56,361 nt of DNA from Saprospiraceae bacterium (GCA_043754475.1 JAYUUR010000112.1:1-56361); one strand, 5' to 3'. Positions 39,126-56,102 are shown, numbered from the stretch's first letter. The notes: generated from the letters alone by a model not told the origin. Program-made: numbers and translations.

Positions 39126-39163
39126 AAAAAGATACCCCATTCCGAATAAACGAAATGGGGTAT
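39126..39163 (-). terminator. Rho-independent terminator of the ribosomal/alpha operon (after rplQ)
   Basis: 10-bp stem ataccccatt / aatggggtat (39132-39141 / 39154-39163), followed on the minus strand by CTTTTT. It lies 28 nt after the rplQ stop. Confidence 0.75.
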
Positions 39164-39190
39164 GAAATATCTAAAAAGATTGTATTAATC

Positions 39191-39700
39191 TTAAGCTTGC
39201 TCTTCTGCTTCAGGCGTTTCATCAGCTTTTTCTTCAACTACAGGTGCTACTGGAGCAACAGGCGCAGTATAAGATTTAGCACGACTACGACGAGTTTTCT
39301 TAGCCGGTGCCGCTTTAGTTTCTTTAGCTGCCATGAAGTTCTCATTGAAATCAACCAATTCAATCAATGCTGTTTCAGCACCATCCCCTTGACGGAAACC
39401 AGTTTTAATAACACGGACATAACCACCCGGTCTATCCATCACTTTTGGAGCGATGACATCAAAAAGTTCTTTGATAGATTCTTTATCTTGCAAATAGCTG
39501 AAAACGACACGACGAGAGTGTGTAGTATTGTCTTTACCTTTTGTGATAAGCGGTTCAATGTGTACACGCAATGCTTTAGCCTTTGCCAAAGTTGTCGAAA
39601 TGCGTTTGTGTTCAATCAAGGCTTTTGACAAATTTTTCAGAAGCGCATGACGGTGTGCCGTTTTACGACCGAGGTTATTAACCTTATCTCCGTGTCTCAT
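39191..39700 (-). CDS. rplQ: 50S ribosomal protein L17
   Basis: [24 protein letters not shown]... Last gene after rpoA. It has a C-terminal APVAPVAPV / E-rich extension. Confidence 0.95.
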
Positions 39701-39827
39701 TTTAAGAGCATTTATCTTTATAACATCGGAGCCGCGCGAATGCGCTCATAACGATTATTATAAAGTTGTTAAAAAAATATTTATAAAAAATTGATTACCA
39801 ATATCTTAGTAATTTCAAATGAATACC

Positions 39828-39837
39828 CCCCTCAGTA
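39828..39837 (-). repeat. Iterated word in the rpoA-rplQ spacer
   Basis: Exact CCCCTCAGTA inside a 161-nt spacer. Confidence 0.95.
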
Positions 39838-39861
39838 AAATGAGGAAAATTCATCTTAAAA

Positions 39862-40860
39862 TTACTCTTCGTCCAATTTGTATTTCGATAAATCCATACC
39901 GAAAGACAAGCCTTTATCCTGCAATAATTCTTCGATTTCGACCAAAGATTTTTTACCGAAATTACGGAATTTAAGCAATTCATGCGTGTCGTAACGTACC
40001 ATCTCACCCAATGAATTGATTTTCGCTGCCTTCAAACAGTTGTAAGCGCGAACTGAAAGGTCGAGGTCTTCAAGTGAAGTTTTGAGCAATTTACGCATGT
40101 GTAAGATATGCTCATCCACAACGCTGTCTTCACGGCTCTTTTCGTCATCGAATGTAATGTTTTCATCAGTGATTAACATCAAATGTTGAATCATGATACG
40201 AGAAGCTTCTTTCACGGCATCTTCAGGATGAATAGTACCGTCAGTTTTTACTTCAATAGTGAGTTTTTCGTAGTCCGTCTTCTGCCCTACACGAGTATTT
40301 TCTACTTTGTACGCTACATTTTTGATAGGCGTATAAATAGCATCAATTGGAATAACACCGATAGGTGCATCTTTTGGCAAGTTTTCATCAGCTGGTACAT
40401 AGCCACGACCTTTTGTAATGGTTAATTCCATTTCCAAACTAACTGAAGGCTCCATCTGACAAATAACGAGGTCAGGATTCATGACGCGGAAAACGTTAGT
40501 CGCCTCCTCGATGTCACCTGCTATGAATTTATCTTTACCGCTGATTGTGAGGTAGATTTTTTCTTCTTTAATATCTTCACCAGCGATTAATTGCTTCAAA
40601 CGAACTTGCTTAAGGTTCAAAATGATGTCCACAACGTCTTCAACGACACCGCGAATAGTAGCGAACTCATGCTCAACACCTGCGATACGCACCGCAGAAA
40701 TTGCAAAACCCTCCAACGACGACAATAAAACGCGACGTAGAGAGTTACCGACAGTTTGACCGAAACCTGGCTCTAATGGCTTGAACTCGAAAATGCCTTC
40801 AAAGTCCGTTGCTTTTTGTAGAACGATTTTGTCGGGTTTCTGAAAATTTAATATTGCCAT
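39862..40860 (-). CDS. rpoA: DNA-directed RNA polymerase alpha subunit
   Basis: Start is the ATG at 40860 ([12 protein letters not shown]...); the track ORF is over-extended to 40923. It has the NTD plus the CTD (…[21 protein letters not shown]…). Confidence 0.95.
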
Positions 40861-41001
40861 ATTATGATTGATTCTAAAAGAAATGAAGGGGAATATTTTT
40901 ATATTGAAATAAGTAATGAGCAATAGGTAATTAGTAATGGGTGATTTTATACAATTAATGTAAATTACCTATTGCTTATTACTTATTACCCATTACTTAT
41001 T

Positions 41002-41610
41002 TTATTTCGAATAAAGTTCGACAATCAACTGTTCGTTTATTTTTTCAGGTATTTGCTCACGCTCAGGATAAGCGATGAAGCGACCTTCGAGGCGTTCAGG
41101 ATTCCAGTCGAGCCAAGAGAATTTCTTAACTTCTCTGTTTACACCTACACCTTCCAAATTGCCATTTGCCCGTGATTTACCACGAATAGCGATGATGTCA
41201 CCCGGACGAACTTGTGCAGAAGGGACATTCAATACAATACCGTTGACAGTAATGTGCTTATGCGAAACCAACTGACGCGATGCATTCCGAGTAGGAGCAA
41301 TGCCTAAACGATATACGACGTTGTCCAAACGAGATTCAAGCAACTGGAGCAAAACCGTACCTGTTACCCCATGACGCTTAGTTGCCTCATGAAATGTTTT
41401 ACGGAATTGACGCTCCAAAACACCATAAGTGTATTTTGCTTTTTGTTTTTCCATCAACTGAACACCATAGTCAGAGCGTTGTTTCCGCTTACGCGTTTGA
41501 CCGTGCTGACCGGGAGCGAATTTGCGTTTTTCAAAAGATTTATCGTTACCGTATATTGCTTCACCAAAAGCTCTTGCTTTTTTGGTAGTAGGTCCAGTAT
41601 ATCTTGCCAT
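41002..41610 (-). CDS. rpsD: 30S ribosomal protein S4
   Basis: [17 protein letters not shown]... 202 aa. Confidence 0.95.
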
Positions 41611-41652
41611 TTTTAATTAAAATTGACTAATTAATTATAATTTTATATAAGA

Positions 41653-42042
41653 TTAAACGCGACGTTTCTTTGGTGGCCGACAGCCGTTGTGTGGCATAGG
41701 CGTTCTATCATGAATAATCGTCACTTTTACACCTGCTGCATCAATAGCGCGGATAGCCGATTCACGACCAGAACCAGGTCCTTTTACATAAACCTCGCAG
41801 AAACGCATACCCGCATCGTAAGCGACTTTTGCAGCACCCGTAGCCGCTACTTGAGCTGCATAAGGCGTATTTTTCTTTGAGCCACGGAAACCACCTTTGC
41901 CGGCAGTGCCCCATGAAATCACCTGTCCCTGTTTGTTAGTCATCGAGACGATGATATTGTTGAAACTTGCCTGAATATACGCCAAACCTTCGGGCGCAAT
42001 CTGGACAACTCTCTTTTTGACTTTCTTAATTGCTTTTGCCAT
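41653..42042 (-). CDS. rpsK: 30S ribosomal protein S11
   Basis: Start is the ATG at 42042 ([12 protein letters not shown]...). It contains ...TPYAAQ... and [12 protein letters not shown]. Confidence 0.95.
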
Positions 42043-42079
42043 TTTTGATTTTAACTTTTGCTCCGGTTTTAGTCCTCTA

Positions 42080-42089
42080 TACTGAGGGG
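42080..42089 (+). repeat. Iterated word in the rpsM-rpsK spacer
   Basis: Exact TACTGAGGGG inside a 112-nt spacer. Confidence 0.95.
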
Positions 42090-42154
42090 TCAATCCTTGA
42101 GCAGTTAAGAGAAATTAATCATTCCAAATCCCAATGTATTAGGCAGGAACCTGA

Positions 42155-42532
42155 TTATTTAGTCACTTTCTTTTTGTTAGCGACTGTTTTACGACGACCT
42201 TTACGTGTGCGAGCGTTAGTACGCGTGCGTTGTCCACGAACTGGTAAACCCTTACGATGACGAAGACCACGGTAGCAAGCGATGTCCATCAAACGTTTGA
42301 TGCTCAATTGCACCTCAGAGCGAAGTTCACCTTCTACTTTGTATTCGTCGTTGACGATACGAGAGATTGTTTTGATGTTGTCATCATTCCAATCACTCAC
42401 TTTAGTATCTTCGCTAACGCCTGCTTTTTCAAGGATTTCCTTGGCAGAAGAACGTCCGACACCGTAAATGTACGTGAGACCAATAACGCCACGCTTGTTT
42501 CTTGGTAAGTCAATACCTGCTATACGAGCCAT
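42155..42532 (-). CDS. rpsM: 30S ribosomal protein S13
   Basis: [14 protein letters not shown]... 125 aa. Confidence 0.95.
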
Positions 42533-42556
42533 GTTTTAAATTAATATTTTAAAAAA

Positions 42557-42673
42557 TTATCCTTGACGTTGTTTGTATTTAGGATTCTTCTTGTTGATAA
42601 CGTACAACTTGCCTTTGCGACGAACAATCTTGCAATCGACAGAACGTTTCTTGATGGAAGGTCTAACTTTCAT
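42557..42673 (-). CDS. rpmJ: 50S ribosomal protein L36
   Basis: Below the ORF-track cutoff. My hand translation gives [38 protein letters not shown] (38 aa). It lies between infA and rpsM, as expected. Confidence 0.9.
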
Positions 42674-42697
42674 TTCCTTATTATTGAATTGTTAAAT

Positions 42698-42916
42698 TTA
42701 TTTATACCTATAAATGATTCTTCCTCTTGACAAATCATAAGGTGACATTTCCACTGACACTTTATCGCCTGGTAATATTCGGATATAATTCATCCGCATT
42801 TTACCTGAAATATTGGCGAGGATAACGTGGTCGTTTTCAAGCCGTACTCTAAAATTTGCATTAGAAAGTGCTTCTTCAACTATGCCATCTTGTTTTATTA
42901 AATCTGTTCTTGCCAT
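42698..42916 (-). CDS. infA: Translation initiation factor IF-1
   Basis: 72-aa S1-like OB fold: ...[35 protein letters not shown]... Confidence 0.95.
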
Positions 42917-42964
42917 ACAAAATTTTATTGAAATTACCCCTTTTTGAATTAGGAGCGCAAATAT

Positions 42965-43801
42965 CTAATTTTTTATTGAAATTTCCAAGAGATTTGAATT
43001 TTTCTTTACAGCTTCTTGTATGAATGAGTGGTCGGAAAGAATATCCGCTTTTTTTCCTTTGCGGATGGCGATAGTGTGTTCAAAGTGTGCGGAAGGTTTT
43101 TTATCAGATGTGATGATTGTCCAACCATCTCCAATACCCGTTACTTCCTTTGTTCCTAAATTAATCATTGGTTCAATAGCGATTACCAAACCATCTCTCA
43201 GTACAACGCCGTTTCCTCGTTTACCATGATTAGGCACATCCGGATCTTCGTGTAATGCTTTACCGATACCATGTCCTGTCAAATCTCTTACTACACCATA
43301 TTTATGGTGCTTCTCACAATATTCAAAAATGGCAAAGCCAATATCTCCTATTCTTTTTCCAACCATTGCTTGATCAATACCTTTATAAAGTGATGTATTT
43401 GTCACATTTAAAAGGTCTAATACTGAGGGGGTAACACCTCCTAAAGCGAAAGTATAAGCAGCATCTCCAAAATACCCATTTAATAAAGTACCGCAATCCA
43501 CTGAAACAACATCATTATCTTGAAACTCTCGATTGGTAGGAATGCCATGAACAACGGCTTCATTCATAGATATGCACAAAGCGGCAGGGAAATCGCGGTA
43601 ACCTTTGAAAGCAGGAACAGCATTATGATCTCTAATAAACTCCTCCGCTTTTTGATCTATAAATTGACTTGTAATACCGGGCTTGATTAATGTACCAACG
43701 TAAGCTAAAGTTTTTGAAACTAATAAACAACTCTCACGAATTAATTCAATTTCATCATCCGTTTTGTAGTATATTTCTTTTTTCTCGCTTGATTGAAACA
43801 T
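42965..43801 (-). CDS. map: Type I methionine aminopeptidase
   Basis: MetAP pattern (…VVHGIP…DVVSVDCG…GHGIG…LHEDP…IAIEPM…FEHT). I prefer the ATG at 43801 because 43828 would overlap secY. Confidence 0.9.
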   Translation of the reverse strand: MFQSSEKKEIYYKTDDEIELIRESCLLVSKTLAYVGTLIKPGITSQFIDQKAEEFIRDHNAVPAFKGYRDFPAALCISMNEAVVHGIPTNREFQDNDVVSVDCGTLLNGYFGDAAYTFALGGVTPSVLDLLNVTNTSLYKGIDQAMVGKRIGDIGFAIFEYCEKHHKYGVVRDLTGHGIGKALHEDPDVPNHGKRGNGVVLRDGLVIAIEPMINLGTKEVTGIGDGWTIITSDKKPSAHFEHTIAIRKGKKADILSDHSFIQEAVKKNSNLLEISIKN

Positions 43802-43817
43802 TGTTTGTTTTTTATTT

Positions 43818-45170
43818 TTAAATACCACCTTCTCCTACTGCTACCAAACCACCACGACCTTGCAGTTTACCGCTTTTCACAAGACCATCGTATTTACTAA
43901 GTAATAAATAAGACTCAATCTGTTGCAAAGTATCTAACACAACACCAACCATAATGAGAATAGAAGTACCCCCGAAGAAACGAGCAAAACCACCATTGAC
44001 ACCCATAAATGCTGCAATACCAGGCATAATTGAAATAAAACCAAGTATAATAGCACCCGGTAATGTAATACGAGTTGTTACTGAGTCAATAAATTCTGCT
44101 GTATTTTGACCCGGTTTCACCCCTGGAATGAATGCATTTTGACGCTTCAAATATTCAGCATATTGCTGTGGATTGACAATTAATGCTGTATAAACATAAG
44201 TGAAAACAACAACCAATATAAAGTAGATTAAATTATGAGGAAAAGATGTATAGTCGTTCAATTGTGCTAAAAACCCAGAAGGAGCACCTTCACCTGACAT
44301 AAATTGAGCAATAGTAGAAGGAATAAACATTAAAGCTTGAGCAAAAATGATAGGCATTACGCCTGCGGAATTCAATTTAATTGGCAAATAATCACGGTTA
44401 GTAGCCATTGGAAGCGATGCTCCTGTTCGACCTACCATGCGTTTTGCAAACTGAAGAGGAATGCGACGAACTGCTTGAATGACTACAATAATACCTGCAA
44501 TTGTAGCGAACCAAACCGCCATTTCTAATACAAAAGCAAAACCGCCTTGTAGTTGGAATTCAGCGATAAGAGCTTGAGGCAAAGCATCAATGATACCTGA
44601 CATAATGATAAAAGATGTACCATTGCCAACGCCTTTTTCTGTGATGCGCTCACCGAGCCACATAGCAAAAACAGTACCTGCCGTCAAAATCACTAAGCCT
44701 GAAAACCAAAAGATGCCTGGAGAAAGACCTGGAGCAATAGCTCCTTTAGTAGTTAAATATGTTAAATAACCGCTACCTTGAACCATTGTAACACCAATAG
44801 TGAGGAAGCGAGTTAGCTGATTCAATTTCTTTCTACCTGATTCTCCTTCATGCTGTTGCAAACGCTGAAAATAAGGGACTGCAAAAGTCAATAACTGAAT
44901 AATGATAGAAGCTGTAATGTAGGGCATCACACCTAACGCAAAAATGGCACCTTTAGCAAATGCACCACCTGTGAAAGTGTTGATAAGACCTAAAAGGTCA
45001 TTGCTGCCACTACTTTTAGCCGCAAGTGCTAATGCTTCAGCATTAACGCCTGGTAAAAGAACGAACGTACCTAAACGAAACACGAACAAAAGCCCGAGCG
45101 TAAAAAGGATACGTTGTTTGAGTTCTGGAATGCTCCAGATGTTCTTAAAAGTTTGAAATAATCTATTCAT
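43818..45170 (-). CDS. secY: Preprotein translocase subunit SecY
   Basis: 450-aa 10-TM protein in the conserved position after rplO. Confidence 0.95.
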   Translation of the reverse strand: MNRLFQTFKNIWSIPELKQRILFTLGLLFVFRLGTFVLLPGVNAEALALAAKSSGSNDLLGLINTFTGGAFAKGAIFALGVMPYITASIIIQLLTFAVPYFQRLQQHEGESGRKKLNQLTRFLTIGVTMVQGSGYLTYLTTKGAIAPGLSPGIFWFSGLVILTAGTVFAMWLGERITEKGVGNGTSFIIMSGIIDALPQALIAEFQLQGGFAFVLEMAVWFATIAGIIVVIQAVRRIPLQFAKRMVGRTGASLPMATNRDYLPIKLNSAGVMPIIFAQALMFIPSTIAQFMSGEGAPSGFLAQLNDYTSFPHNLIYFILVVVFTYVYTALIVNPQQYAEYLKRQNAFIPGVKPGQNTAEFIDSVTTRITLPGAIILGFISIMPGIAAFMGVNGGFARFFGGTSILIMVGVVLDTLQQIESYLLLSKYDGLVKSGKLQGRGGLVAVGEGGI

Positions 45171-45238
45171 CGAAACTTATATTTCTTTTTTTAATGTTAA
45201 AATCGAATGTAAATATAAACGACTTCTTCATTAAAAGG

Positions 45239-45685
45239 TTACGCAACTGTTATAGAACCACCTGCCGCTTCGATAGCTGCTTTAGCCGTCTCAGAACAAG
45301 CATGAGCTGTTACATTCAATTTCGATTTGACTTCACCATGAGCCAATATTTTAACAAGGTCATTTTTCTTAATAACACCTTGCTCATATAAAGCAGCAGG
45401 CGTGATGTCAGAAACACCAAATCTATCAGCGAATTCTTGTAAGCGGCTGATATTAATCGCTACATATTCTACTCGATTGATGTTTTTGAAACCGAACTTA
45501 GGCAAACGGCGTTGTAAAGGCGTTTGACCACCTTCAAAACCACGTTTGTTTTTGTGACCCGAAGTTGCTTTATCACCTTTGTGACCACGTGTAGAAGTTC
45601 CGCCATGACCTGAGCCTTGACCTCTACCGATGCGTTTTACTTTATGCGTGGAACCTTTTGCAGGTCTAAGATTATTTAATTCCAT
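45239..45685 (-). CDS. rplO: 50S ribosomal protein L15
   Basis: MELNNLRPAKGSTHKVKRIGRGQGSGHGGTSTRGHKG... Confidence 0.95.
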   Translation of the reverse strand: MELNNLRPAKGSTHKVKRIGRGQGSGHGGTSTRGHKGDKATSGHKNKRGFEGGQTPLQRRLPKFGFKNINRVEYVAINISRLQEFADRFGVSDITPAALYEQGVIKKNDLVKILAHGEVKSKLNVTAHACSETAKAAIEAAGGSITVA

Positions 45686-45706
45686 TATCTTAATTTTAAC
45701 AATTGA

Positions 45707-45886
45707 TTAGGCTTCTTCAATTTTGAGAAGATGCGCCACTTTATTAATCATGCCCATTACCGAAGGACTCGCTTCTTTTTCTACAGAGTGATATACTTTG
45801 CGGATACCCAAGGCTCTTACAGTTTCCTTCTGATCTTTCGGACGGTCAATCGTACTTTTGACGAGAGTAATTTTAATTTTGCCCAT
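45707..45886 (-). CDS. rpmD: 50S ribosomal protein L30
   Basis: Below the ORF-track cutoff. My hand translation gives MGKIKITLVKSTIDRPKDQKETVRALGIRKVYHSVEKEASPSVMGMINKVAHLLKIEEA (59 aa). Confidence 0.9.
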   Translation of the reverse strand: MGKIKITLVKSTIDRPKDQKETVRALGIRKVYHSVEKEASPSVMGMINKVAHLLKIEEA

Positions 45887-45915
45887 TTTTTTATTGAATT
45901 ATTGTCAATTGAAAA

Positions 45916-46431
45916 TTAACCGTTAAACACTTTTGACAAATGAATACGACGTTGCTTTGCTACTTGATGTGCAGTACGTAATTTTGACAAAGCATCAATT
46001 GTCGCTTTCACAACATTGTGAGGATTGGATGAACCCATTGACTTAGCCAAAACGTTGTGTATGCCTGCCATATCTAAAACAGCGCGCATTGCACCACCTG
46101 CGATGACACCCGTACCCGCCGAAGCTGGTCTAAGCAATACTTTACCCGCACCAAATTTTCCTTTGATTTCGTGAGGTACAGTACCATTTATTACAGGTAC
46201 TTTCACAAGGTTTTTCTTAGCATCTTCCGTTGCTTTTGAAATAGCCTCAGATACTTCACGGGCTTTACCCAAACCTTGACCAACTGTACCCTTACCATCA
46301 CCTACCACTACGATAGCAGCGAAGCTGAATGTACGACCACCTTTAGTGACTTTGGCAACGCGGTTGAGCGATACCATTTTTTCTTTAAATTCAGATTCCG
46401 TAGCTGGAACTCTTTGAACATTTTTCGCCAT
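45916..46431 (-). CDS. rpsE: 30S ribosomal protein S5
   Basis: ...[34 protein letters not shown]... The start is the ATG at 46431 (MAKNV...) or at 46440. Confidence 0.93.
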
Positions 46432-46506
46432 TGGATTCAATGTATTTTAAAACGGCAATTTATTTTTTATCCGTAATAAATTGATATTCAATTATTTATA
46501 TTAAAA

Positions 46507-46553
46507 TTTTCTACTGACATTTAGCCCCTCTGGGGCAAGCACCTAAGTAGTTA
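46507..46553 (+). repeat. 47-nt spacer repeat, copy A (ttttctac....atttagcccctctggggcaagcacctaagtagtta)
   Basis: About 83 percent identical to 54130-54174 in the same orientation. It contains the GCCCC-TCT-GGGGC mini-hairpin. Confidence 0.85.
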
Positions 46554-46557
46554 AAAT

Positions 46558-46567
46558 TACTGAGGGG
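46558..46567 (+). repeat. Iterated word in the rplR-rpsE spacer
   Basis: Exact TACTGAGGGG inside a 133-nt spacer, 4 nt after repeat copy A. Confidence 0.95.
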
Positions 46568-46573
46568 GTAGAA

Positions 46574-46921
46574 TTAAAAATCCAAACCACCTTCACGTGC
46601 ACCTTCAGCCAAAGCTTTAACACGACCATGATACAAATAACCACCTCGGTCAAAAACAACTGAACCGACACCTGCTGCTTTAGCTTTTTCAGCTACTAAC
46701 TGACCTACCGCTTTTGATTTGTCAGTTTTTGTACCTGTTGTGGTTACTTCTTTAGATGAAGCCGCTGCTAAGGTTGTACCTGATACATCGTCTATAACTT
46801 GTGCATAAATGCCTTTGTTAGAACGAAAAATGTTCAAGCGAGGACGTGCAGCCGTACCGTTAATTGTTTTACGGACACGTGAGTGAATGCGAGCTTGACG
46901 CTCTCTAACTGTCATTTTCAT
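46574..46921 (-). CDS. rplR: 50S ribosomal protein L18
   Basis: ...[20 protein letters not shown]...[27 protein letters not shown]. Confidence 0.95.
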
Positions 46922-47017
46922 TGTAGATTGACAATTTTAATTTTTATAAAAATTTCCACAATCCCTAACCCTCGAATGAGGATTTCCCTGAGTGAGATAG
47001 TGAAAAGGTGTTTAATA

Positions 47018-47578
47018 TTATTTCTTACCACCGGCAGTTTTACCTGCTTTACGGCGAAGTACTTCGCCTTGGAAACGGATACCTTTACCTTTGTAAGGTT
47101 CTGTCTTACGGAATGTCCGCACTTTAGCACACACTGCACCTAATAATTGCTTATCGTGGCATGTCATAATGAGCGTCGGAGGTGAACCTTTTTCCATTTT
47201 AGTAACGAATTTCACTTCAGAAGGTATTGACATTTCAATTGGATGTGAATAACCCAATGTGAAAAGCACATTACCATCTTTCGGTTCTAATTTGTAACCG
47301 ACACCTATTAACTCTAATGTAGCACTATAACCTTCAGTTACACCTTTCACCATATTGGCAATAAGGGCACGGTACAAACCATGCAACGCACGATGGCGTT
47401 TCTGGTCAGTTGGACGTGTAACATTGATAATACCATCGGCAACTGCCACGCTAATATCCATATCCACTTGCTGCTTCAATGTGCCTTTCGGACCTTTTAC
47501 TGTCACCAAATTGCCTTTACTAATTTCTACTTCAACTCCTGAAGGTAGCGCAATCGGCGATTTACCAATTCTTGACAT
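47018..47578 (-). CDS. rplF: 50S ribosomal protein L6
   Basis: MSRIGKSPIALPSGVEVEISKGNLVTVKGPKG... Confidence 0.95.
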   Translation of the reverse strand: MSRIGKSPIALPSGVEVEISKGNLVTVKGPKGTLKQQVDMDISVAVADGIINVTRPTDQKRHRALHGLYRALIANMVKGVTEGYSATLELIGVGYKLEPKDGNVLFTLGYSHPIEMSIPSEVKFVTKMEKGSPPTLIMTCHDKQLLGAVCAKVRTFRKTEPYKGKGIRFQGEVLRRKAGKTAGGKK

Positions 47579-47616
47579 TTTTTATATCTTTAAAATTGAT
47601 GATAATCAATTGTTGA

Positions 47617-48021
47617 TTAATGAATGTAGCAAAGCAATTCGCCGCCTACGTTGAGCTTACGGGCGTCTTTATCAGTCATTATGCCTCTTGAAGTGGAGAT
47701 GATAGCGATGCCCAAACCGTTGATAACACGGGGTACATCAGCAGCTCCACGATATTGGCGAAGACCTGGACGAGAGACGCGTTGCAAAGAGCGGATAATC
47801 GGCTGTTTGGTTTGCGCGTCATATTTAAGCGCGATTTTTATCAAACCTGCTTGACCAGTAACATCTTCAAATTTATATTTGAGGATATAACCTTGCTCAT
47901 ACAGGATTTCCGTAATGCGCTTCTTCATATTTGAAGCAGGAATCTCAACGATACTGTGACCAGCCATTTGCGCGTTACGAATGCGCGTGAGAAAGTCTGC
48001 TATAGGATCTGTTACTGCCAT
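47617..48021 (-). CDS. rpsH: 30S ribosomal protein S8
   Basis: MAVTDPIADFLTRIRNAQMA... Confidence 0.95.
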   Translation of the reverse strand: MAVTDPIADFLTRIRNAQMAGHSIVEIPASNMKKRITEILYEQGYILKYKFEDVTGQAGLIKIALKYDAQTKQPIIRSLQRVSRPGLRQYRGAADVPRVINGLGIAIISTSRGIMTDKDARKLNVGGELLCYIH

Positions 48022-48054
48022 TTTAAAGCAATGATTTTAATTTTTTATACTGCA

Positions 48055-48064
48055 TACTGAGGGG
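48055..48064 (+). repeat. Iterated word in the rpsN-rpsH spacer
   Basis: Exact TACTGAGGGG inside a 161-nt spacer. Confidence 0.95.
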
Positions 48065-48182
48065 GTATCAATTAAATAGGTGTGAAATTGACCTGCCACA
48101 GCGAAATTTTATTTAAAGAAAAGTCAATTGGAATTTTGAATTAACTATTATAATTCAATCTAAATATCCAATTAATAGTATT

Positions 48183-48452
48183 TTACCAAGAGGCTTTTGT
48201 AACACCCGGTAGCTTACCTTGTAAAGCCATCAAGCGGAACGTGTAGCGATTGATACCAAAGTCACGCATAAATCCTTTAGGGCGACCTGTCAATTGGCAA
48301 CGATTGTGTAACCGCACCTTTGACCCATTGCGAGGTAGTTTATCCAACTCCTCCCAATTGCCTTCAGCTTTCAATTTGGTACGCAATTCGGCATATCTTG
48401 ACACCAAGCGCTCCCGTTTTTTTTCTCTTGCAATGATTGATTTCTTAGCCAT
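48183..48452 (-). CDS. rpsN: 30S ribosomal protein S14
   Basis: [17 protein letters not shown]... ending ...LPGVTKASW. Confidence 0.95.
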
Positions 48453-48464
48453 TGTCCTCTACGA

Positions 48465-49013
48465 TTATTTTTTAAAGGGCATTCCCATCGCTTTCAACAG
48501 AGCCAATGCCTCAGCATCGGTCGGTGCAGTCGTGACGAAAGTAATGTCCATACCTTGAATTTTATTGATTTTATCAATATCAATCTCAGGAAAAATGATT
48601 TGTTCAGTAACACCCATAGTGTAGTTGCCACGACCGTCAAAGCTCTTATCATTGATACCTTTGAAGTCACGTACACGAGGCAAAGCCACTGTAATGAATC
48701 TATCAAGAAACTCATACATATTGTCGCCACGTAAAGTTACGCGAACCCCAATAGGCATATCTTCCCGAAGTTTAAAGTTAGAGATTGAAGTGCGTGCTTT
48801 AGTAGAGACTGCTTTTTGACCTGCAATAGTGGTCATTTCATTCATCGCTACTTCAACGAGTTTTTTATCCTGAGTAGCACCACCAACACCTTGATTAATA
48901 CAAATCTTAGTAATTTTCGGCACTTGCATAACCGTTTTATATTGGAATTGCTCCATCAATTTAGAGGCAACTTCCTTACGATACTTTTCTTTAAGTCTGG
49001 GTACGTAGCTCAT
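48465..49013 (-). CDS. rplE: 50S ribosomal protein L5
   Basis: ...[11 protein letters not shown]...[10 protein letters not shown]... Confidence 0.95.
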
Positions 49014-49345
49014 TACTTAATAGTTTGACCTGATTTTTTTGAATAGCGAACTAATTTTCCGTCTTCTTCACGACGACCTACACGTGTTGGAGTATCCGTT
49101 TTCGGATCAACAAGCATAAGGTTTGAAATTTGAATCGGTAATTCGATTTCTTCTCTTCCGCCTTGGCTTGTTTGAGTCGGCTTGCGATGTTTAGTCGCCA
49201 CACGAACACCTTGAACAATAGCTCTATTTTCCGTAGGGAAAACCTTGATTACCTCTCCGGTTTTGCCTTTATCTTCGCCGGTAATTACCATCACCTTATC
49301 GCCTGTTTTGATACGAAGCTTGGGTGCGAATCTTTTTGTTGCCAT
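49013..49345 (-). CDS. rplX: 50S ribosomal protein L24
   Basis: ...[23 protein letters not shown]... (KOW motif). Confidence 0.95.
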
Positions 49346-49379
49346 TTTACTTATAATATTGAGTAGTAACTTTTAATAT

Positions 49380-49745
49380 TTATAGTACTTCGGGTGCCAA
49401 TGAGACAATTCTCATATAGTCTTTATCACGCAACTCCCGTGCAACAGGTCCGAAAATACGCGAACCGCGAGGTTCATCCGATGCACTTAAAAGGACACAA
49501 GCGTTATCATCGAAACGAATATAAGAACCATCTTTACGACGAATCTCTTTACGAGTGCGAACGATAACGGCCTTTGAAACCGACCCTTTTTTAACACCTC
49601 CCGGTGTTGCATCTTTAACAGTAACAACTATTTTGTCACCAATTGAAGCATAACGGCGCTTCGAGCCACCTAATACACGGATACAAAGAACTTCCTTTGC
49701 GCCACTGTTATCCGCTACTTTTAATCTTGATTCTGCCTGTATCAT
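49380..49745 (-). CDS. rplN: 50S ribosomal protein L14
   Basis: [27 protein letters not shown]... Confidence 0.95.
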
Positions 49746-49837
49746 TTTCTTTTATATTGAAAATTTTTACAAAGAAGTTATTATTAGAGGAATTTAAATA
49801 CAGGTTGAAAACCTTAAATTCATAATCAATAACGAAT

Positions 49838-50098
49838 TTATTTCGCTTTCGCAACCACTTCAATAAGTCTCCAACGCTTCAATTTACTGAGGGGGCGTGT
49901 CTCCATGATGAGGACAGTATCGCCCACTCCGACAACATTCAACTCGTCGTGAGCGTGTAATTTCTTAGTTTGCTTGACGAATTTGCCGTAAATCGGATGC
50001 TTCAACTTACGCTCTACTTTTACAGTAATCGTCTTGTTTCTCGCACTACTTGATACGATACCGATACGGGTCTTTCTAAGATTTCTTTCAGCACTCAT
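49838..50098 (-). CDS. rpsQ: 30S ribosomal protein S17
   Basis: ...[19 protein letters not shown]...[17 protein letters not shown]... The RPLSK codons spell the iterated word. Confidence 0.95.
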
Positions 50099-50184
50099 TT
50101 TTTTTATTGTTTTTAGTTTTTTGTACTCAGTTTTTAGAAATTCAAAATACTAAAAACTAAATCCTAAACACTTAAAATTACGCT

Positions 50185-50454
50185 TTATTTAAGACGAGCG
50201 CGGCGAGCGCGAATGCGTGAACGCATTTCCAAATCCTCTGCTGAATATTCAGACAAATCGCGTTTGCGAAGTTCAGTATGAAAGCGCGCAATATCTTTAC
50301 GCATTTTCTTAAACTGACTGTTATCGGTGATACCCCGTACAGATTGTTCGAGCTTCATTTTCTGAAGGTCATGTTCTAATACGGTTAACTCGCTTGATAG
50401 AGCTTCTTCCGATATTTCTTGCAGGTTTTTTTTCTTGTCTGCCATTTTTTTCAA
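50185..50454 (-). CDS. rpmC: 50S ribosomal protein L29 (with C-terminal extension)
   Basis: Contains the L29 helical core ...LQKMKLEQSVRGITDNSQFKKMRKDIARFHTELRKR... At 89 aa it is longer than the usual ~65 aa. Confidence 0.85.
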   Translation of the reverse strand: MKKMADKKKNLQEISEEALSSELTVLEHDLQKMKLEQSVRGITDNSQFKKMRKDIARFHTELRKRDLSEYSAEDLEMRSRIRARRARLK

Positions 50455-50487
50455 CTATTTAAAATCTTGACTTTCAATCAATTGTGA

Positions 50488-50907
50488 TTACTCCGCATAA
50501 TCTACACGGGTAACGGTCTTTGTCATCACGGGTAATTTCTGTGCGCCCAAACGAAGAGCATGACGCGCTACATCTTCCGGAACACCATCAATCTCAAATA
50601 TGATGCGACCCGGTTTTACCAAAGCCACCCAATGATCAAGGGCACCTTTACCTTTACCCATACGAACCTCAGCAGGTTTTGATGTAACAGGTTTATCAGG
50701 AAATACAAGACACCATACTTTACCTTCACGTTTCATGTGACGTGTAATCGCAATACGGGCTGCTTCTATCTGACGGCTGGTTAAGCGACCTAAATCCATT
50801 GATTTGAGGGCGAAAGAACCGAATGATACGGTGCTTCCTTTAAACGCCAAACCTGTGTTGCGCCCTTTTTGCTGCTTGCGATATTTCGTTCTTTTCGGCT
50901 GTAACAT
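50488..50907 (-). CDS. rplP: 50S ribosomal protein L16
   Basis: [16 protein letters not shown]... Confidence 0.95.
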
Positions 50908-51081
50908 TGTTCAAATGTTTTATGTGCGAATCTAAAATCCGCTATCTTTTATTGAACAAGCCTGTCTAATCAAGCCCTTTTTTCAAAGCGGCTGCAAAAA
51001 TACAGACTTTTGTTTGAATACTCTAACTTTATTATAAGTTTTATTCTGAAATTACAGAATAAATTCGGGCGTAGCAAAATA

Positions 51082-52032
51082 TTATTTTTTGACTCCGCCG
51101 CCGCCACCACCGCGATTTCCACCGCCGCCGCCACCGCCACGATTGCCGCCACCGCCAGTTCCGCCACCACGATTGCCGCCACCTGCTCCACCGCTACCAC
51201 CGCGATTTCCACCGCCGCCGCCACGATTGTCACGTCCATCTCCACCACCTCTATTATCTCTGCGATCACCACCGCCTCTGTTATCACGACGATCACCACC
51301 ACCTCTGTTATCACGGCGATCTCCACCGCCTCTATTATCTCTGCGATCTCCGCCGCCGCCGCCAGTATTTGTAGTAGACCCCTCAGTAAGAAGCGTTAAT
51401 TCGCGCTTACCAAAGACTTCGCCTTTACAAATCCAAACTTTGATACCCAATTTTCCATAAACAGTTTGAGCTTCGCTGTGAGCGTAATCAATATCCGCAC
51501 GGAAAGTATGTAGAGGTGTACGACCTTCTTTGAATTCTTCACTCCGAGCCATATCTGCACCGTTCAAACGACCACCAATACGCACTTTGATACCTTCGGC
51601 ACCTACACGCATAGTTTGTTGAATAGCCATTTTGATAGCACGTCGATAGTTGATACGACCTTCAAGCTGTTTAGCTATAGATTCACCAACAATAGCGGCA
51701 TCTAATTCCGGCTTACGGATTTCATTGATGTTGATTTGAACATCTTTACCGGTGAGTTTTTTTAACTCTTCGCGGATACGATCAACTTCTTGACCACCTT
51801 TGCCGATAATAATACCGGGGCGAGATGTCTGAATTGTAACCGTTACACGCTTGAGCGTGCGCTCCATGATAACACGGGCAACGCCACCTTTGCTAATACG
51901 GGCTTTGAGGTAATTACGGATTCTTTCATCCTCAACTACTTTCTCCGCCATATCTTTACCACCGAACCAGTTAGATTCCCAACCACGGATGATACCCAAG
52001 CGATTACCTATCGGATTTGCTTTTTGACCCAT
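51082..52032 (-). CDS. rpsC: 30S ribosomal protein S3 with ~98-aa Gly/Arg/Asp/Asn repeat tail
   Basis: [23 protein letters not shown]..., with KH and S3-C domains, followed by the tail (GGGDRRDNR)x4-5 and (G)nNR repeats. Confidence 0.93.
51223..51357 (-). repeat. Five tandem 27-nt units encoding GGGD(R/G)RDNR within rpsC
   Basis: Units occupy 51223-51249, 51250-51276, 51277-51303, 51304-51330 and 51331-51357. They have synonymous and near-synonymous differences. Confidence 0.9.
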
Positions 52033-52101
52033 TGTGAACTTTTAACGAGGTTTTTAGAACCTCCGTTTATTTTTTTATTAAAAATAAAATTTCAATTAAA
52101 A

Positions 52102-52455
52102 TTAAACAGCTATCGGCTTACGATTTTCAACAATAATCGTAATGTGATTCGTCCGCTTACGAATCCGATGAGCGCGACCTTGTGGTGCAGGCTGAAAACG
52201 CTTGAGCATTGTCGCCGCATCACTGAATGCTGTTTTGATGTATAGGTCATACTCAGCCGCATCAAGTTCAGTTTTCACTTCCCAGTTTGCTACTGCTGAC
52301 ATCACTATTTTTTGTAACCACACTGCAGCTTCCTTGTTGGTATAACGAAGAATGCCTAATGCTTCACCTACATTTTTGCCGCGAACGTTATCCACCACGA
52401 GGCGCATTTTACGTGCCGACATTGGGCAACTTTTGAATCTTGCTACTGCTTCCAT
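52102..52455 (-). CDS. rplV: 50S ribosomal protein L22
   Basis: ...MSARKMRLVVDNVRGKNVGEALGILRYT... Confidence 0.95.
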   Translation of the reverse strand: MEAVARFKSCPMSARKMRLVVDNVRGKNVGEALGILRYTNKEAAVWLQKIVMSAVANWEVKTELDAAEYDLYIKTAFSDAATMLKRFQPAPQGRAHRIRKRTNHITIIVENRKPIAV

Positions 52456-52536
52456 TGTCTGTACTCAGTATTTAATGGTGTGTAAATATTGACAACACCA
52501 CGCTATGTTTTTTTAAAATGCTATTTAAATGGATTA

Positions 52537-52546
52537 TACTGAGGGG
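52537..52546 (+). repeat. Iterated word in the rpsS-rplV spacer
   Basis: Exact TACTGAGGGG inside a 141-nt spacer. The local sequence tatactgagggggtata has 5-nt inverted arms. Confidence 0.95.
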
Positions 52547-52596
52547 GTATAGTTTTATAAAAAATCTAAACCAAGACTCAATATATTCAAACCAAT

Positions 52597-52866
52597 TTAC
52601 TTCTTACGATTGCCTGAGTGACCTTTAAAGTTACGTGTCGGCGAAAACTCACCTAACTTGTGACCCACCATATTCTCAGTGACGAACACTGGGACGAAGG
52701 TTTTACCGTTGTGAACGGCAATGGTCAAGCCCACCATACTTGGAAAAATCATCGAAGCGCGTGACCATGTTTTAATCACGGTTTTCTTATTGCTTTCACG
52801 CATTGCTTCTACTTTCTCAAGCAATTTGTGAAATATATAAGGTCCTTTTTTTAATGAACGAGGCAT
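52597..52866 (-). CDS. rpsS: 30S ribosomal protein S19
   Basis: [19 protein letters not shown]...[16 protein letters not shown]... Confidence 0.95.
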
Positions 52867-52885
52867 GATAAAATATTTTATATTT

Positions 52886-53719
52886 TTACTTATTTGTCGT
52901 TTTACGTCTTGTCACTATCAAGCTTGTAGAGCGTGAATTTGGATTACGCGTCTTAGCTCCTTTAGCTTTCTTACCAGTCCGTGAACGTGGGTGACCACCT
53001 GATGCACGACCTTCACCACCACCCATCGGGTGATCCACAGGATTCATTACAACACCTCTATTATGAGGACGACGACCTTCCCAACGTCTTGCACCCGCTT
53101 TACCGAATACTTCAAGGCTATGATCTTGATTTGAAACAACACCTACTGTCACACGGCAAGTCATCAAAATGCGGCGAACTTCACCTGAAGGCAAACGCAA
53201 AATAGCATATCTTCCTTCTTTACCTGATAAAGTCGCGTAAGTACCCGCCGAGCGAGCCATCGCACCACCTTTACCCGGTTGCATCTCTATATTGTGTACT
53301 TGAACACCTAATGGCACTTCAGATAAGAACATCGTATTACCAACATCTGGCGTTACACCTGCTCCGCTTTGAATAATAGCACCTACTTTCAAGCCATTTG
53401 GTGCGATGATATAACGTTTTTCACCGTCAGCATAAAAAACCAAAGCAATAAAAGCCGAACGATTCGGATCGTACTCAATTGTTTTTACTGTTGCCGGAAC
53501 ACCATCTTTATCACGTTTGAAGTCAATGATACGATATTGACGCTTGTGTCCACCACCACGATAACGCACTGTCATTTTACCTGAGTGGTTACGACCACCC
53601 GTAGCTGGAAGGCTCTCAAGGAGAGTCTTTTCAGGCACATCAGTTGTGACCTCTGCGAAAGCATTGGTAACTCTGGTACGCAACGTAGGCGTTAGCGGAT
53701 TATACTTTTTTACTGGCAT
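52886..53719 (-). CDS. rplB: 50S ribosomal protein L2
   Basis: [14 protein letters not shown]...GGGHKRQYR...HPMGGGEGR... Confidence 0.95.
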
Positions 53720-53799
53720 CTTATTAAAAGATTTTGGATTTCAGATTCTGAATTTCAAACTATTATAATGTCCAATTTGAAACTACAAATTCATAAAAA

Positions 53800-54108
53800 T
53801 TATTCTTCACCTTGGTCTCCACCACCAAAAAGGTCAATTTTTTCACCTTCTTGCAATGTAACAAATGCTTTTTTATAAGCAGGTTTTACACCTTTTACTA
53901 CACCTGTACGCGTTGAGCGCGATTTGGCTTTGCCCGGTATAACTGTTGTATTTACAGCCGAAACCGAAACGTTGAACATCGCCTCTACCGCTTTCGCAAC
54001 TTCGAGTTTGTTAGCCTTTCTATCCACAACGAAAGTATAAACTGAACTTTTCATTGCTTTATCCGACTTCTCGGTGATAATTGGACGAATTAAAATGTCT
54101 CTTGCCAT
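53800..54108 (-). CDS. rplW: 50S ribosomal protein L23
   Basis: ...ILIRPIITEKSDKAM...YTFVVDRKANKLEVAKAVE... Confidence 0.93.
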   Translation of the reverse strand: MARDILIRPIITEKSDKAMKSSVYTFVVDRKANKLEVAKAVEAMFNVSVSAVNTTVIPGKAKSRSTRTGVVKGVKPAYKKAFVTLQEGEKIDLFGGGDQGEE

Positions 54109-54129
54109 TTTTTTTTATAATTTGATAAT

Positions 54130-54174
54130 TTTCTACCGGAATTTAACCCCTCTGGGGCAACCACTAAGCAGTTA
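54130..54174 (+). repeat. 47-nt spacer repeat, copy B (ttttctaccggaatttaacccctctggggcaaccactaagcagtta)
   Basis: Partner of 46507-46553, located in the 88-nt rplD-rplW spacer. Confidence 0.85.
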
Positions 54175-54196
54175 TGATAATTGACTATTTAATCAA

Positions 54197-54823
54197 TCAA
54201 TTAAACATTTCTTGAATTTTTGCTACTGAACCTTCCGACAAAACCAATGATTGTGTTTGCATGATTTGATAAGTGTTCAAATCACTTGCACGAGTCAATG
54301 CTACACGTTGAATATTACGGCTTGATTTCAATAAATTTTCGTTCAATTCAGGTGTTACAAGTACAGTTCTTTTACCCGCAATTCCTAAGCTTTTAAGAAC
54401 ATTGATAAGCTCTTTGGTTTTAGGGGCTTCCATATTGAAATCCTCTATAATCATAATAGAACCTGACGCAGCTTTAGTAGAAAGTGCTGATTTACGAGCC
54501 AGTTGCTTCACTTTTTTGTTCAATTTGACAACATATTCGTGAGGCTTAGGACCGAAAACACGCGCACCACCATATAAAAGCGGTGAATTAATATCACCTC
54601 TACGTGCGCCACCTGTTCCTTTTTGTTTGAACAATTTACGCGTAGAACCCGACATTTCACTCCGTTCTTTCGACTTGTGCGTACCTTGACGTTGATGCGC
54701 CAAATAGGCTTTCACAGCAAGATATACGACATGTTGATTCGGCTCAATGCCGAAGATGTCAGCAGGCAATTCAACGCTTCTGCCGGTCTTCTGACCTTGT
54801 ATATTTAAAACATCTACTTGCAT
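54197..54823 (-). CDS. rplD: 50S ribosomal protein L4
   Basis: ...YLAHQRQGTHKSKERSEMSGSTRKLFKQKGTGGARRGD... Confidence 0.95.
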   Translation of the reverse strand: MQVDVLNIQGQKTGRSVELPADIFGIEPNQHVVYLAVKAYLAHQRQGTHKSKERSEMSGSTRKLFKQKGTGGARRGDINSPLLYGGARVFGPKPHEYVVKLNKKVKQLARKSALSTKAASGSIMIIEDFNMEAPKTKELINVLKSLGIAGKRTVLVTPELNENLLKSSRNIQRVALTRASDLNTYQIMQTQSLVLSEGSVAKIQEMFN

Positions 54824-54830
54824 TTCTTAT

Positions 54831-55454
54831 TTATTTTTCAATAATGATATACGCGCCTTTATGACCCGGAACCGCTCCTTTTACGAGCATTAGATTTTGG
54901 TCAGCAAAGATTTTAGCTACTTTCAAACCTTTTATAGTCACTGTATCGCCACCAGTACGACCAGCCATCCGCATACCTTTCATGACCTTTGAAGGGAATG
55001 AAGATGCTCCGATAGAACCCGGTGCTCTTAAACGATCATGTTGACCATGTGTGCTTTGACCGACACCGCTAAAGCCGTGACGCTTGACAACACCTTGAAA
55101 ACCTTTACCTTTAGATGTACCTACTACGAATACTTTATCTCCTTCTGCAAATATCTCAGCGACATTAATAGTGTCACCTAATTGTTTGGCGATACTTGCG
55201 TTGCGAAATTCAACCACTTGGCTCATAGCACCCTCAACACCAGCTTTCTTGAAGTGTCCAAGCATTTGCTTTGATGTATTTTTTGCTTTTGCCTCGCCGA
55301 AAGCTACCTGTAGCGCATCGTATCCATCAGTTTCACTCGTTTTGACTTGAGTTACAACGTTTGGACCCAATTCTACAACCGTTACGGGGATAGAATTTCC
55401 CTTTTCATCGAAGATGCTGGTCATACCAACTTTCTTTCCGATTAATCCGTTCAC
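54831..55454 (-). CDS. rplC: 50S ribosomal protein L3
   Basis: (M/V)[18 protein letters not shown]... from the GTG at 55454. The track ORF is over-extended to an upstream ATG at 55535. Confidence 0.9.
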
Positions 55455-55652
55455 TTTATTAATAATTTTAAATTTTAAGAAATTTAGACAGGCAGAACTT
55501 ACCGTTCCCGTTAGTGAGATGTGCCGAAGTATCATTATGAATGAATAATTAAAATTATTACCATCATGGCTTGATACGTGAGAGATTTAAAACAAGTATA
55601 AAAGATTGAATGCCTTTACTTTGTAAAAAATTACTCTCTTGTTTTCGACAGA

Positions 55653-55662
55653 TACTGAGGGG
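55653..55662 (+). repeat. Iterated word in the rpsJ-rplC spacer
   Basis: Exact TACTGAGGGG (local gatactgaggggtatc) inside a 339-nt spacer. Confidence 0.95.
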
Positions 55663-55793
55663 TATCGAATGGATAAATTTTTCAAACAAAAAATTTATCA
55701 ACACGACCTTTTCAGTAAATAGCCACTAAAAATCTTAAAGTATAGATGATGAATAAGGATTCGTCAATAATCTCTACCCGATTATTTCGGGAC

Positions 55794-56102
55794 TTACATC
55801 AGCTTTACCTGAATATCTACGCCACTTGGTAATTCCAGTTTAGACAAAGCATCAACTGTTTTCGCATTGGGCGAATAGATTTCGATTAGCCGCTTGTGTG
55901 TGCGGAGTTGGAACTGCTCACGAGCTTTCTTATTGACGTGCGGAGAACGCAGGACAGTATAGATTCTCTTCTCGGTGGGCAGCGGAATCGGACCAACTAC
56001 TGCCGCGTTTGTAGCGCGAACTGTTTTAACAATCTTTTCAGTAGATTTATCTACCAAATTATGATCGTAGCTCCGGAGTTTGATTCTGATTTTCTGATTC
56101 AT
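55794..56102 (-). CDS. rpsJ: 30S ribosomal protein S10
   Basis: [25 protein letters not shown]...[23 protein letters not shown]... Confidence 0.95.

Follow-up and report, generated by a model that had tools for sequence, protein, structure and literature searches.

The ribosomal-protein gene cluster in a 56,361-nt stretch of DNA from a Saprospiraceae bacterium (GCA_043754475.1, JAYUUR010000112.1:1-56361; the whole stretch is called the window below) raises the question of why several of its intergenic spacers are so long and why most of these carry one iterated 10-nt word, TACTGAGGGG. An earlier note on this DNA had proposed that the spacers were expanded to accommodate the word, coding sequence being too constrained to hold it, and that the word or its RNA form could act as a signal within the mRNAs of the cluster. 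Comparison with related genomes led us to a different answer, namely that the location of the word in the spacers is probably a by-product of ancestral long spacers combined with a genome-wide DNA-level tag, the word itself. In what follows, G000 is the source genome of the window, other G numbers are congeners and C numbers are contigs.

The cluster lies on the minus strand and consists of 30 genes identified by NCBIfam equivalog matches, running from rpsJ (55794-56102) to rplQ (39191-39700) in the order rpsJ-rplC-rplD-rplW-rplB-rpsS-rplV-rpsC-rplP-rpmC-rpsQ-rplN-rplX-rplE-rpsN-rpsH, followed by rplF-rplR-rpsE-rpmD-rplO-secY-map-infA-rpmJ-rpsM-rpsK-rpsD-rpoA-rplQ, which bears out the gene order read earlier. 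Start codons were set from profile positions and N-terminal sequence (e.g. rplC GTG at 55454, rpsK at 42042 and rpoA at 40860), and the eight junctions of 112-339 nt singled out in the earlier note were recovered. Of the remaining 21 junctions, 14 are shorter than 50 nt and seven measure 68-96 nt, so its remark that most others fall below 50 nt was roughly right. All nine word positions that it listed are TACTGAGGGG or the reverse complement CCCCTCAGTA, and exact copies do stand in six of the eight long spacers (at 55653, 52537, 48055, 46558, 42080 and 39828). No one-mismatch copy was found anywhere in the cluster, and the rpsC-rplP and rpsD-rpoA spacers hold no exact copy either. The cluster and its eight long spacers are listed here.

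39191..56102, minus strand: ribosomal-protein cluster, 30 genes in Bacteroidota-type order with secY-map-infA-rpmJ and rpsD (NCBIfam).
55455..55793, minus strand: rpsJ-rplC spacer, 339 nt, word at 55653-55662 (the mRNA strand reads CCCCTCAGTA).
52456..52596, minus strand: rpsS-rplV spacer, 141 nt, word at 52537-52546.
50908..51081, minus strand: rpsC-rplP spacer, 174 nt, word-free in G000.
48022..48182, minus strand: rpsN-rpsH spacer, 161 nt, word at 48055-48064.
46432..46573, minus strand: rplR-rpsE spacer, 142 nt from the ATG start (133 nt from the earlier TTG start).
42043..42154, minus strand: rpsM-rpsK spacer, 112 nt, word at 42080-42089.
40861..41001, minus strand: rpsD-rpoA spacer, 141 nt, word-free, occupied by a 96-nt near-perfect hairpin at 40907-41002.
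39701..39861, minus strand: rpoA-rplQ spacer, 161 nt, word at 39828-39837 (sense in mRNA).

The genus offers a natural experiment on the relation between word and spacer. Among 33 genomes, 21 hold 2840-6948 copies of the word and 12 hold at most 39; one of the latter, G044, the most divergent member (SecY 68% identical), holds 2769 copies of a one-base variant, TACTGGGGGG (the dialect word), and 2 of TACTGAGGGG. The variant occurs 0-2 times in ten other low-word congeners (all but G043) and at most 34 times in 199 genomes of other genera of the family, giving 21 word-bearing genomes, one dialect genome and 11 with neither, with G043 left out of the variant count. The cluster was obtained from 20 congeners and every junction was measured, with starts in the relatives assigned automatically, so that single lengths may be wrong by some tens of nt. 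Word-free congeners matched the word-bearing ones in length at seven of the eight long junctions.

Spacer lengths in word-free genomes (nt): rpsJ-rplC 267; rpsS-rplV 130/64/76; rpsC-rplP 112/372/277; rpsN-rpsH 70/55/169/208.
Spacer lengths in word-free genomes (nt): rpsM-rpsK 100/87/113/246/255; rpsD-rpoA 119/84/97/111; rpoA-rplQ 183/186/206/209.

The sole word-free genome with a complete cluster on one contig, G007, has 29 junctions totalling 2486 nt, nine of which reach at least 100 nt, and the spacers of G000 total 2305 nt with eight junctions of that size. The rpsJ-rplC junction measures 402 nt in the dialect genome; at rpsC-rplP, where G032, G037 and G042 carry the word, word-free genomes have 112-372 nt. 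In 79 loci from Saprospiraceae, rpsD-rpoA has a median length of 119 nt and rpoA-rplQ one of 129 nt, and the non-coding share is 13.6% for the cluster and about 15% for the genome. A single junction, rplR-rpsE, clearly exceeds its word-free counterparts in the word-bearing clade (38-166 nt vs 23-37 nt in six word-free genomes); its extra length is due to a separate, dispersed hairpin repeat of about 46 nt, found in G000 at 46507-46553, and the word (46558-46567) lies 6 nt past the rplR stop. Blocks of sequence within the rpsM-rpsK, rpoA-rplQ and rpsJ-rplC spacers are conserved in word-free genomes as well. In rpsM-rpsK, the word occupies a variable 10-nt linker that separates the conserved blocks 42090-42101 and 42060-42077, and both blocks recur in G007, G038 and G040, three word-free genomes whose linker is a 10-mer unrelated to it. 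Word-free kin thus have long spacers with conserved sequence, the very observation that the earlier note had named beforehand as speaking against its proposal. As spacers reach the same lengths in these congeners, they did not expand to take up the word, and long spacers (many of 70-400 nt) appear from this comparison to be ancestral in the genus, irrespective of it.

The word extends far beyond the cluster. The window contains 43 exact and 4 one-mismatch copies (47 together, vs 0.97 +/- 1.0 in shuffles), and the G000 assembly (5.10 Mb, 668 contigs, 38.2% G+C, 93.6% complete) contains 3915 copies of TACTGAGGGG (0.77 per kb), 1945 forward and 1970 reverse, which makes it the top 10-mer by a wide margin; the most frequent unrelated one, an A/T run, has 693 copies and the reversed word only 6. 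With coding and non-coding DNA divided by a crude caller of open reading frames (ORFs; at least 90 residues, 85% of the genome taken as coding), about 74% of the copies fall within ORFs, in every stop-free frame, at 0.67 per kb of coding vs 1.33 per kb of non-coding DNA, and with regard to ORF direction 1456 are sense and 1424 antisense. Neighbouring copies agree in orientation at a frequency of 0.517, and of 0.49-0.53 at lags 1-10, an indirect test given the short contigs; among pairs less than 60 bp apart, 55 of 61 are inverted. The copies are more evenly spaced than under contig-aware random placement, as evidenced by the coefficient of variation of their spacing (0.769 vs 0.956 +/- 0.015) and by the number of gaps above 6 kb (4 vs 39 expected). 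Perfect copies exceed the sum over all 30 one-mismatch variants 4.4-fold (3915 vs 885), the first base accounting for 474 of the 885. Conservation around 3893 aligned copies ends at about 13 nt, and an alternation of AT-rich with GC-rich blocks, repeating roughly every 10 nt, is seen on one flank only. These properties mark the word as a genome-wide DNA-level tag with the genomic hallmarks of DNA uptake sequences. The DNA uptake sequences (DUS) of Neisseriaceae and the uptake signal sequences (USS) of Pasteurellaceae are described in PMC1626085 and PMC2817400 as present at about one copy per kb, neutral in orientation and evenly spaced, with perfect copies more numerous than mismatched ones, with types that differ between clades and with dyad pairs serving as terminators.

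The coding sequence of the cluster holds three copies in 14607 nt, which is a depletion relative to genome-wide density (9.7 expected, P(<=3) = 0.013), and its spacers hold six copies in 2305 nt, which is near ordinary intergenic density (3.06 expected, P(>=6) = 0.09, not significant). The three coding copies are as follows.

49885..49894, plus strand: word in rpsQ, within the codons of the conserved peptide RPLSK.
43421..43430, plus strand: word in map (methionine aminopeptidase, not a ribosomal-protein gene), within a poorly conserved peptide.
51379..51388, minus strand: word in rpsC at residue 215, at the onset of a variable C-terminal extension.

All three copies that had been counted in ribosomal-protein coding sequence are therefore real, but the one at 43421 has to be reassigned to map. 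They are substitutions and none is an insertion: the rpsQ peptide RPLSK is encoded by other synonymous codons in word-free G007, with no insertion or deletion, and the map site reads VTPSV in word-bearing genomes and has unrelated residues at equal length in word-free ones. The earlier observation that the word is kept out of constrained coding sequence and located in spacers holds, and it is repeated in 12 word- or dialect-bearing clusters with 20 copies in 163.7 kb of coding sequence (0.12 per kb) and 78 in 35.0 kb of spacer (2.23 per kb), counts that are not independent as these genomes are kin. In the G044 cluster, the dialect word has no coding copy and nine in spacers. Uptake sequences are characterised in PMC2817400 as rarer in highly conserved genes and located at poorly conserved residues, a 'least harm' pattern, and this pattern is what the cluster shows. 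Mechanistically, the word would arise by base substitution wherever sequence is free to vary, a sequence-specific drive would keep its copies perfect, and ribosomal-protein coding sequence would accept it only at synonymous or variable positions. With coding sequence too constrained, the copies of the cluster gather in the unconstrained parts of its spacers.

Besides the tolerance on single spacer lengths and the crude coding split mentioned above, several observations weigh against regarding the spacer copies as a by-product. The eight long spacers taken alone, a set picked post hoc, hold six copies vs 1.8 expected (P = 0.011). Five of the six spacer copies in G000, and seven of nine in G044, have the C-rich strand in mRNA, and co-directional intergenic copies genome-wide are biased in the same way (260 vs 211, P = 0.027); this skew in the spacers and among co-directional copies speaks for some transcription-related selection.

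Which process reads and maintains the tag is a separate matter. By analogy with the DUS and USS, we give about an even chance to the word being a DNA uptake signal, in which case the drive would be preferential uptake and recombination of word-bearing DNA via a pilus-independent Bacteroidota competence system. Transformation of Riemerella is, according to PMC8459023, pilus-independent and dependent on ComEC, DprA, ComF, RecA, a periplasmic helix-hairpin-helix (HhH) protein and an outer-membrane protein, a DUF5689 surface protein being essential. In G000, dprA is present, and G000:C534:429-3239 encodes a 937-residue protein in which a DUF5689/OB-fold region is combined with an endonuclease/exonuclease/phosphatase domain and a sorting tail of the type IX secretion system (T9SS). 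Of the 21 word-bearing genomes, 20 have a full-length relative of this DUF5689 nuclease, and of the 11 word-free genomes, none. The nuclease diverges very fast, with 70% identity where SecY has 94%. At G000:C631:3177-7651, comEC is followed by the gene of a protein with four HHH_3 repeats (ComEA-like) and by that of a lytic transglycosylase with MltA/3D domains; this comEC cluster is conserved across the genus and fast-evolving, ComEC being 53% identical where SecY is 86% identical. It is proposed tentatively, and with somewhat less than even confidence for the proposal as a whole, that TACTGAGGGG may be the first DNA uptake sequence outside Proteobacteria, read by a pilus-independent, T9SS-linked Bacteroidota surface receptor, that this receptor is possibly the DUF5689/OB-fold nuclease, and that the drive would have rewritten the outer helix of an mRNA leader (that of rpsH, described below) with compensating changes.

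Some of the genomic evidence is unfavourable to uptake. Neither TIGR01420 (PilT/PilB-type ATPase) nor PF00263 (secretin) has a match at E <= 0.001 in the 93.6% complete G000, and hence the machinery known to read DUS and USS seems to be absent. ComEC occurs in 32 of 33 and the HhH protein in 33 of 33 genomes of the genus, word-free ones included, and they therefore do not explain the distribution of the word; the ComEC and ComEA-like families were rejected as discriminators for being present in nearly all genus genomes. No gene for the DUF5689 nuclease was found in G033, and what G044 has is a homologue only of the N-terminal 230 residues of that nuclease. As the word-bearing genomes form nearly one clade, the co-occurrence of word and nuclease is a lead without statistical weight.

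These same findings lend themselves to a second reading, which keeps the spacer account unchanged and takes the word as the site of some other DNA-level process, such as recognition by a chromosome-bound protein, self-marking in defence or repair, or a repair or conversion bias as proposed for the HIP1 octamer. We regard it as possible without favouring it. It accords with the pilus and secretin genes not found in G000 and with competence genes that fail to separate word-bearing from word-free genomes, and dialects, numerous copies and a shortage in constrained genes are what any lineage-specific drive would produce. Literature searches did not find Saprospiraceae and 'uptake sequence' together, returned nothing about such a word from work on DNA uptake sequences, Bacteroidetes and natural transformation, and placed the word itself in no bacterial context, the matches listed being eukaryotic or primer contexts. 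Against such a process, the word is non-palindromic, unlike HIP1, and has no strand skew, unlike Chi/KOPS; even spacing, an excess of perfect copies, inverted pairs, a phased AT flank and a density of about one per kb are so far jointly described only for uptake sequences, and pilus-independent transformation does occur in Bacteroidota.

The distribution of the word among congeners constrains its history under either process. In a SecY tree of 30 genomes, all 20 word-bearing rows fall within one strongly supported clade of 25, which also holds a word-free clade of five genomes, with an inner branching order that the tree does not resolve; G044 stands on the far side, beside other word-free genomes. 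From this placement, either the word would be old and would have been lost several times, or the specificity system would have arisen or been transferred twice. Decayed copies in word-free genomes are few, one-mismatch counts lying near the control (17 vs 5 in G007, 12 vs 7 in G040). No other hyper-abundant 10-mer was found in samples of word-free G007 (120 kb), G031 (100 kb) and G040 (69 kb), and ACTTGCGGCA, considered as a genome-wide word of G011, was rejected as belonging to a hairpin repeat of 30-63 copies.

A few exact copies in genomes otherwise classed as word-free, namely G015 (C268, C282, C146, C306 and others), G034, G011 and G040, sit in tight clusters at normal word density. The patch on G015:C146 begins about 19 kb into the 34.7-kb contig, with rising G+C. 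One patch in G015 is not close to G000 DNA; such patches could be imports, mis-assemblies or mis-binnings. In G000, C533 (8149 nt) has no word copy and 48% G+C, on both of which grounds it is probably foreign or mis-binned, and C379:3601-8853 comprises 5.2 kb with neither an ORF of at least 90 residues nor the word. Long runs of copies in the same orientation were seen on G013:C6 (about 47 kb to 111 kb) and on G044:C12, partly at a regular interval of about 1.1 kb on the latter, which suggests copies within a large repetitive gene.

The proposal with which this locus was first approached, that the spacers were enlarged for the word and that the word or its RNA form is a processing, structural or regulatory signal in abundant mRNAs, we now consider improbable. 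The presence of the word in six of the eight long spacers and the shared orientation of five of the six copies relative to mRNA speak for it, as does its constant position upstream of two genes in different species, with rpsH starting 31-34 nt further on (11 of 11 word-bearing genomes examined) and rpsK 36-42 nt further on; these distances are fixed because the flanks are conserved. In rpsS-rplV it is the word that is conserved and not its flanks: it forms an island in a spacer whose remainder can hardly be aligned, and is kept in seven of nine aligned word-bearing genomes, with the dialect word at the same site in G044 and decayed copies in G008 and G033. Weighing more heavily on the other side are the word-free congeners with equally long spacers and common conserved blocks, the different repeat behind the sole clearly longer junction, and the indifference to transcription direction of a word that resides mostly within ORFs. 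Because its genome-wide orientation is indifferent to transcription, no general RNA role is supported for the word. As an RNA signal, the word therefore fails generally (1456 sense vs 1424 antisense) and stands only locally, as part of hairpins in the rpsH leader and after rpoA.

48053..48103, minus strand: rpsH leader hairpin with an invariant internal loop between its two helices; the 3' strand of the outer helix is the word.

In this leader the word serves as one strand of the outer helix, a point in favour of an RNA function. The hairpin comprises 13 pairs, and in an alignment of 14 sequences (G007 and G043 lack the element and were excluded) 93.5% of cells are paired vs 86.1 +/- 1.3 when shuffled and 34-52% when partners are slid, with four pairs changing on both sides. 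The dialect word occupies the same site in G044. Word-free G035 and G011, however, have the same inner helix and invariant loop with a different outer helix, complementary on both strands, so the hairpin exists without the word, and it matches no Rfam family. Its loop-proximal core, GUC...GAUAC, matches helix 21 of the 16S rRNA of congener G007, which was used as no 16S rRNA gene was found in the G000 assembly; in helix 21 this core is the S8 site. Judging from this match and the paired changes, the hairpin is probably an S8-binding mimic or autoregulatory leader, the word having entered it by a rewriting of the outer helix. When 149 genomes of other genera were searched with a covariance model of this leader, three weak hits came up, none beside ribosomal-protein genes; with only 40 candidates scored per genome, absence of the leader outside the genus is not shown by this search.

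A second local case lies in rpoA-rplQ, where a small hairpin directly past the rpoA stop has the word as its 3' half. At the same place G042 and G013 have an inverted word pair followed by a T-run, and the inverted pair after rpoA would, by analogy, be the terminator-like use that is known for DUS and USS pairs. Four public metatranscriptome runs, available as contigs only, matched about 5% of sampled words, mostly at 90-95% likeness, so these contigs derive from relatives; some span coding sequence into spacers. They show no ends, strands or processing, and DNA carry-over may contribute to them.

An origin of the spacer copies as footprints or termini of some small mobile element, with the spacers lengthened by its insertion, is very improbable, for although other small repeats have entered these spacers (the ~46-nt repeat, and ACTTGCGGCA tandems in G011 and G031), the 3893 aligned copies have no conserved body past about 13 nt, the coding copies show no insertion or deletion against word-free homologues, most copies are genic, and the rpsM-rpsK word replaces a linker of equal length. 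A repeat of REP/MITE type was likewise rejected, given conservation over at most about 13 nt, about 74% of copies in ORFs and no indels at coding copies.

The account of a genome-wide tag settling in ancestral long spacers thus remains the preferred one, and the following further elements of the cluster stand beside it.

55733-55770 and 55465-55533, minus strand: two conserved blocks in the rpsJ-rplC spacer.
54129..54174, minus strand: second copy of the ~46-nt dispersed hairpin repeat, in the rplD-rplW spacer.
39742-39777 and 39701-39733, minus strand: conserved leader blocks of rpoA-rplQ, common to word-free G007, G038 and G040.
39132..39163, minus strand: terminator-like hairpin 28 nt past the rplQ stop, with a T-run behind its 13 pairs.

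The hairpin at 39132..39163 is likely to mark the end of the cluster. The block at 55733-55770 (minus strand), kept in seven word-bearing genomes, contains a sigma-70-like TTGACG-17-TATACT and may be an internal promoter, the pattern being sigma-70-like whereas Bacteroidota promoters follow another consensus. The rpsD-rpoA hairpin has a fold energy of -32.9 kcal/mol (z = -4.95), which none of 200 shuffles equals; its arms are made of GTAAT-like repeats, short pieces of the hairpin recur on six further contigs, and it may be an attenuator or else a mobile element. An Rfam scan of 38500-56361 at E <= 1 gave no match at the gathering score, only microRNA look-alikes below threshold on the rpsD-rpoA hairpin, and the rpmJ-rpsM junction (42500-42592, minus strand) has a weak match to Alpha_RBS, the S4 site of the alpha operon (24.6 bits vs a threshold of 38). 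Of the ~46-nt repeat, which has a GC-rich central hairpin with pairing kept in variants and no Rfam match, at least 20 more copies occur in G000 (e.g. on C364, C470, C488, C653 and C118). Word-free G011 and G031 have a hairpin repeat marked by ACTTGCGGCA, at 30-63 copies per genome, in tandem within ribosomal-protein spacers (G011:C203:6466-6628; G031:C6:2820-3109). The rpsC gene (51082-52032, minus strand) encodes 316 residues, of which the S3 profile covers those up to residue 209; with its C-terminal extension the total protein varies between 290 and 343 residues across the genus, the extension being rich in GGC/GCC-type repeats in G035 and G011.

That long spacers are normal for the genus and that the word gathers in them is ordinary. 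The wider point is that a freshwater genus of Saprospiraceae, so far uncultured and represented by metagenome-assembled genomes only, carries an uptake-sequence-like word together with a dialect, and that we did not find such a word reported for Bacteroidota in the literature searched. To our knowledge, Neisseriaceae and Pasteurellaceae are so far the only families from which DNA uptake words have been described. Should the present word prove to be such a signal, self-preferring transformation would have evolved in Bacteroidota and would work without type IV pili, and its receptor could be traced by comparative genomics. The 'least harm' rule is cleanly displayed by the ribosomal-protein cluster, which has also revealed a probable new S8-type leader.

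Several known systems invite comparison. Autoregulation by S8 acts on the spc operon mRNA of E. coli as a ribosomal-protein leader. Like S8-type leaders, the element described here is a conserved hairpin directly upstream of rpsH with a GUC...GAUAC core as in 16S helix 21; unlike the E. coli leader, it stands before rpsH itself and not at rplE, and it has no Rfam match. Polar words such as Chi and KOPS are over-represented and read on DNA, strongly skewed to one replication strand and much rarer, unlike the present word, whose neighbouring copies agree in orientation in only 51.7% of cases. HIP1 of cyanobacteria, GCGATCGC, is a highly iterated palindrome, genic as well as intergenic, with lineage variants and a function that is not established; it is alike in being a hyper-abundant short word, and our word differs from it in being non-palindromic with a one-sided flank.

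The closest parallels are the uptake sequences themselves. The DUS of Neisseriaceae vary from lineage to lineage as dialects set apart by single bases (PMC3630211), are read by the minor pilin ComP (PMC3868556), have no flanking motifs (PMC1626085) and occur between genes as inverted pairs that look like terminators (PMC2817400). The present word resembles DUS in its length of 10 nt, in its density near one copy per kb and in having one-base dialects and inverted pairs; unlike DUS, it has a flanking motif, its copies are mainly genic where those of DUS are mainly intergenic, and no pilus genes were found beside it. The USS of Pasteurellaceae (Hin type AAGTGCGGT, Apl type ACAAGCGGT) consist of a core and two AT-rich segments about one helical turn apart, according to PMC1626085 and PMC2817400. 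Unlike USS, the word belongs to a Bacteroidota host without a detected type IV pilus ATPase or secretin and is known here from sequence alone, its core of 10 nt (strictly 9, ACTGAGGGG) is unrelated in sequence, and many congeners are without it. Like USS, it has a short core that is no palindrome and recurs about once per kb, in equal orientations, evenly spaced and with perfect copies exceeding one-mismatch copies; its copies are mostly genic yet denser between genes, are made by substitution, are accompanied by one-sided phased AT tracts and come in clade variants.

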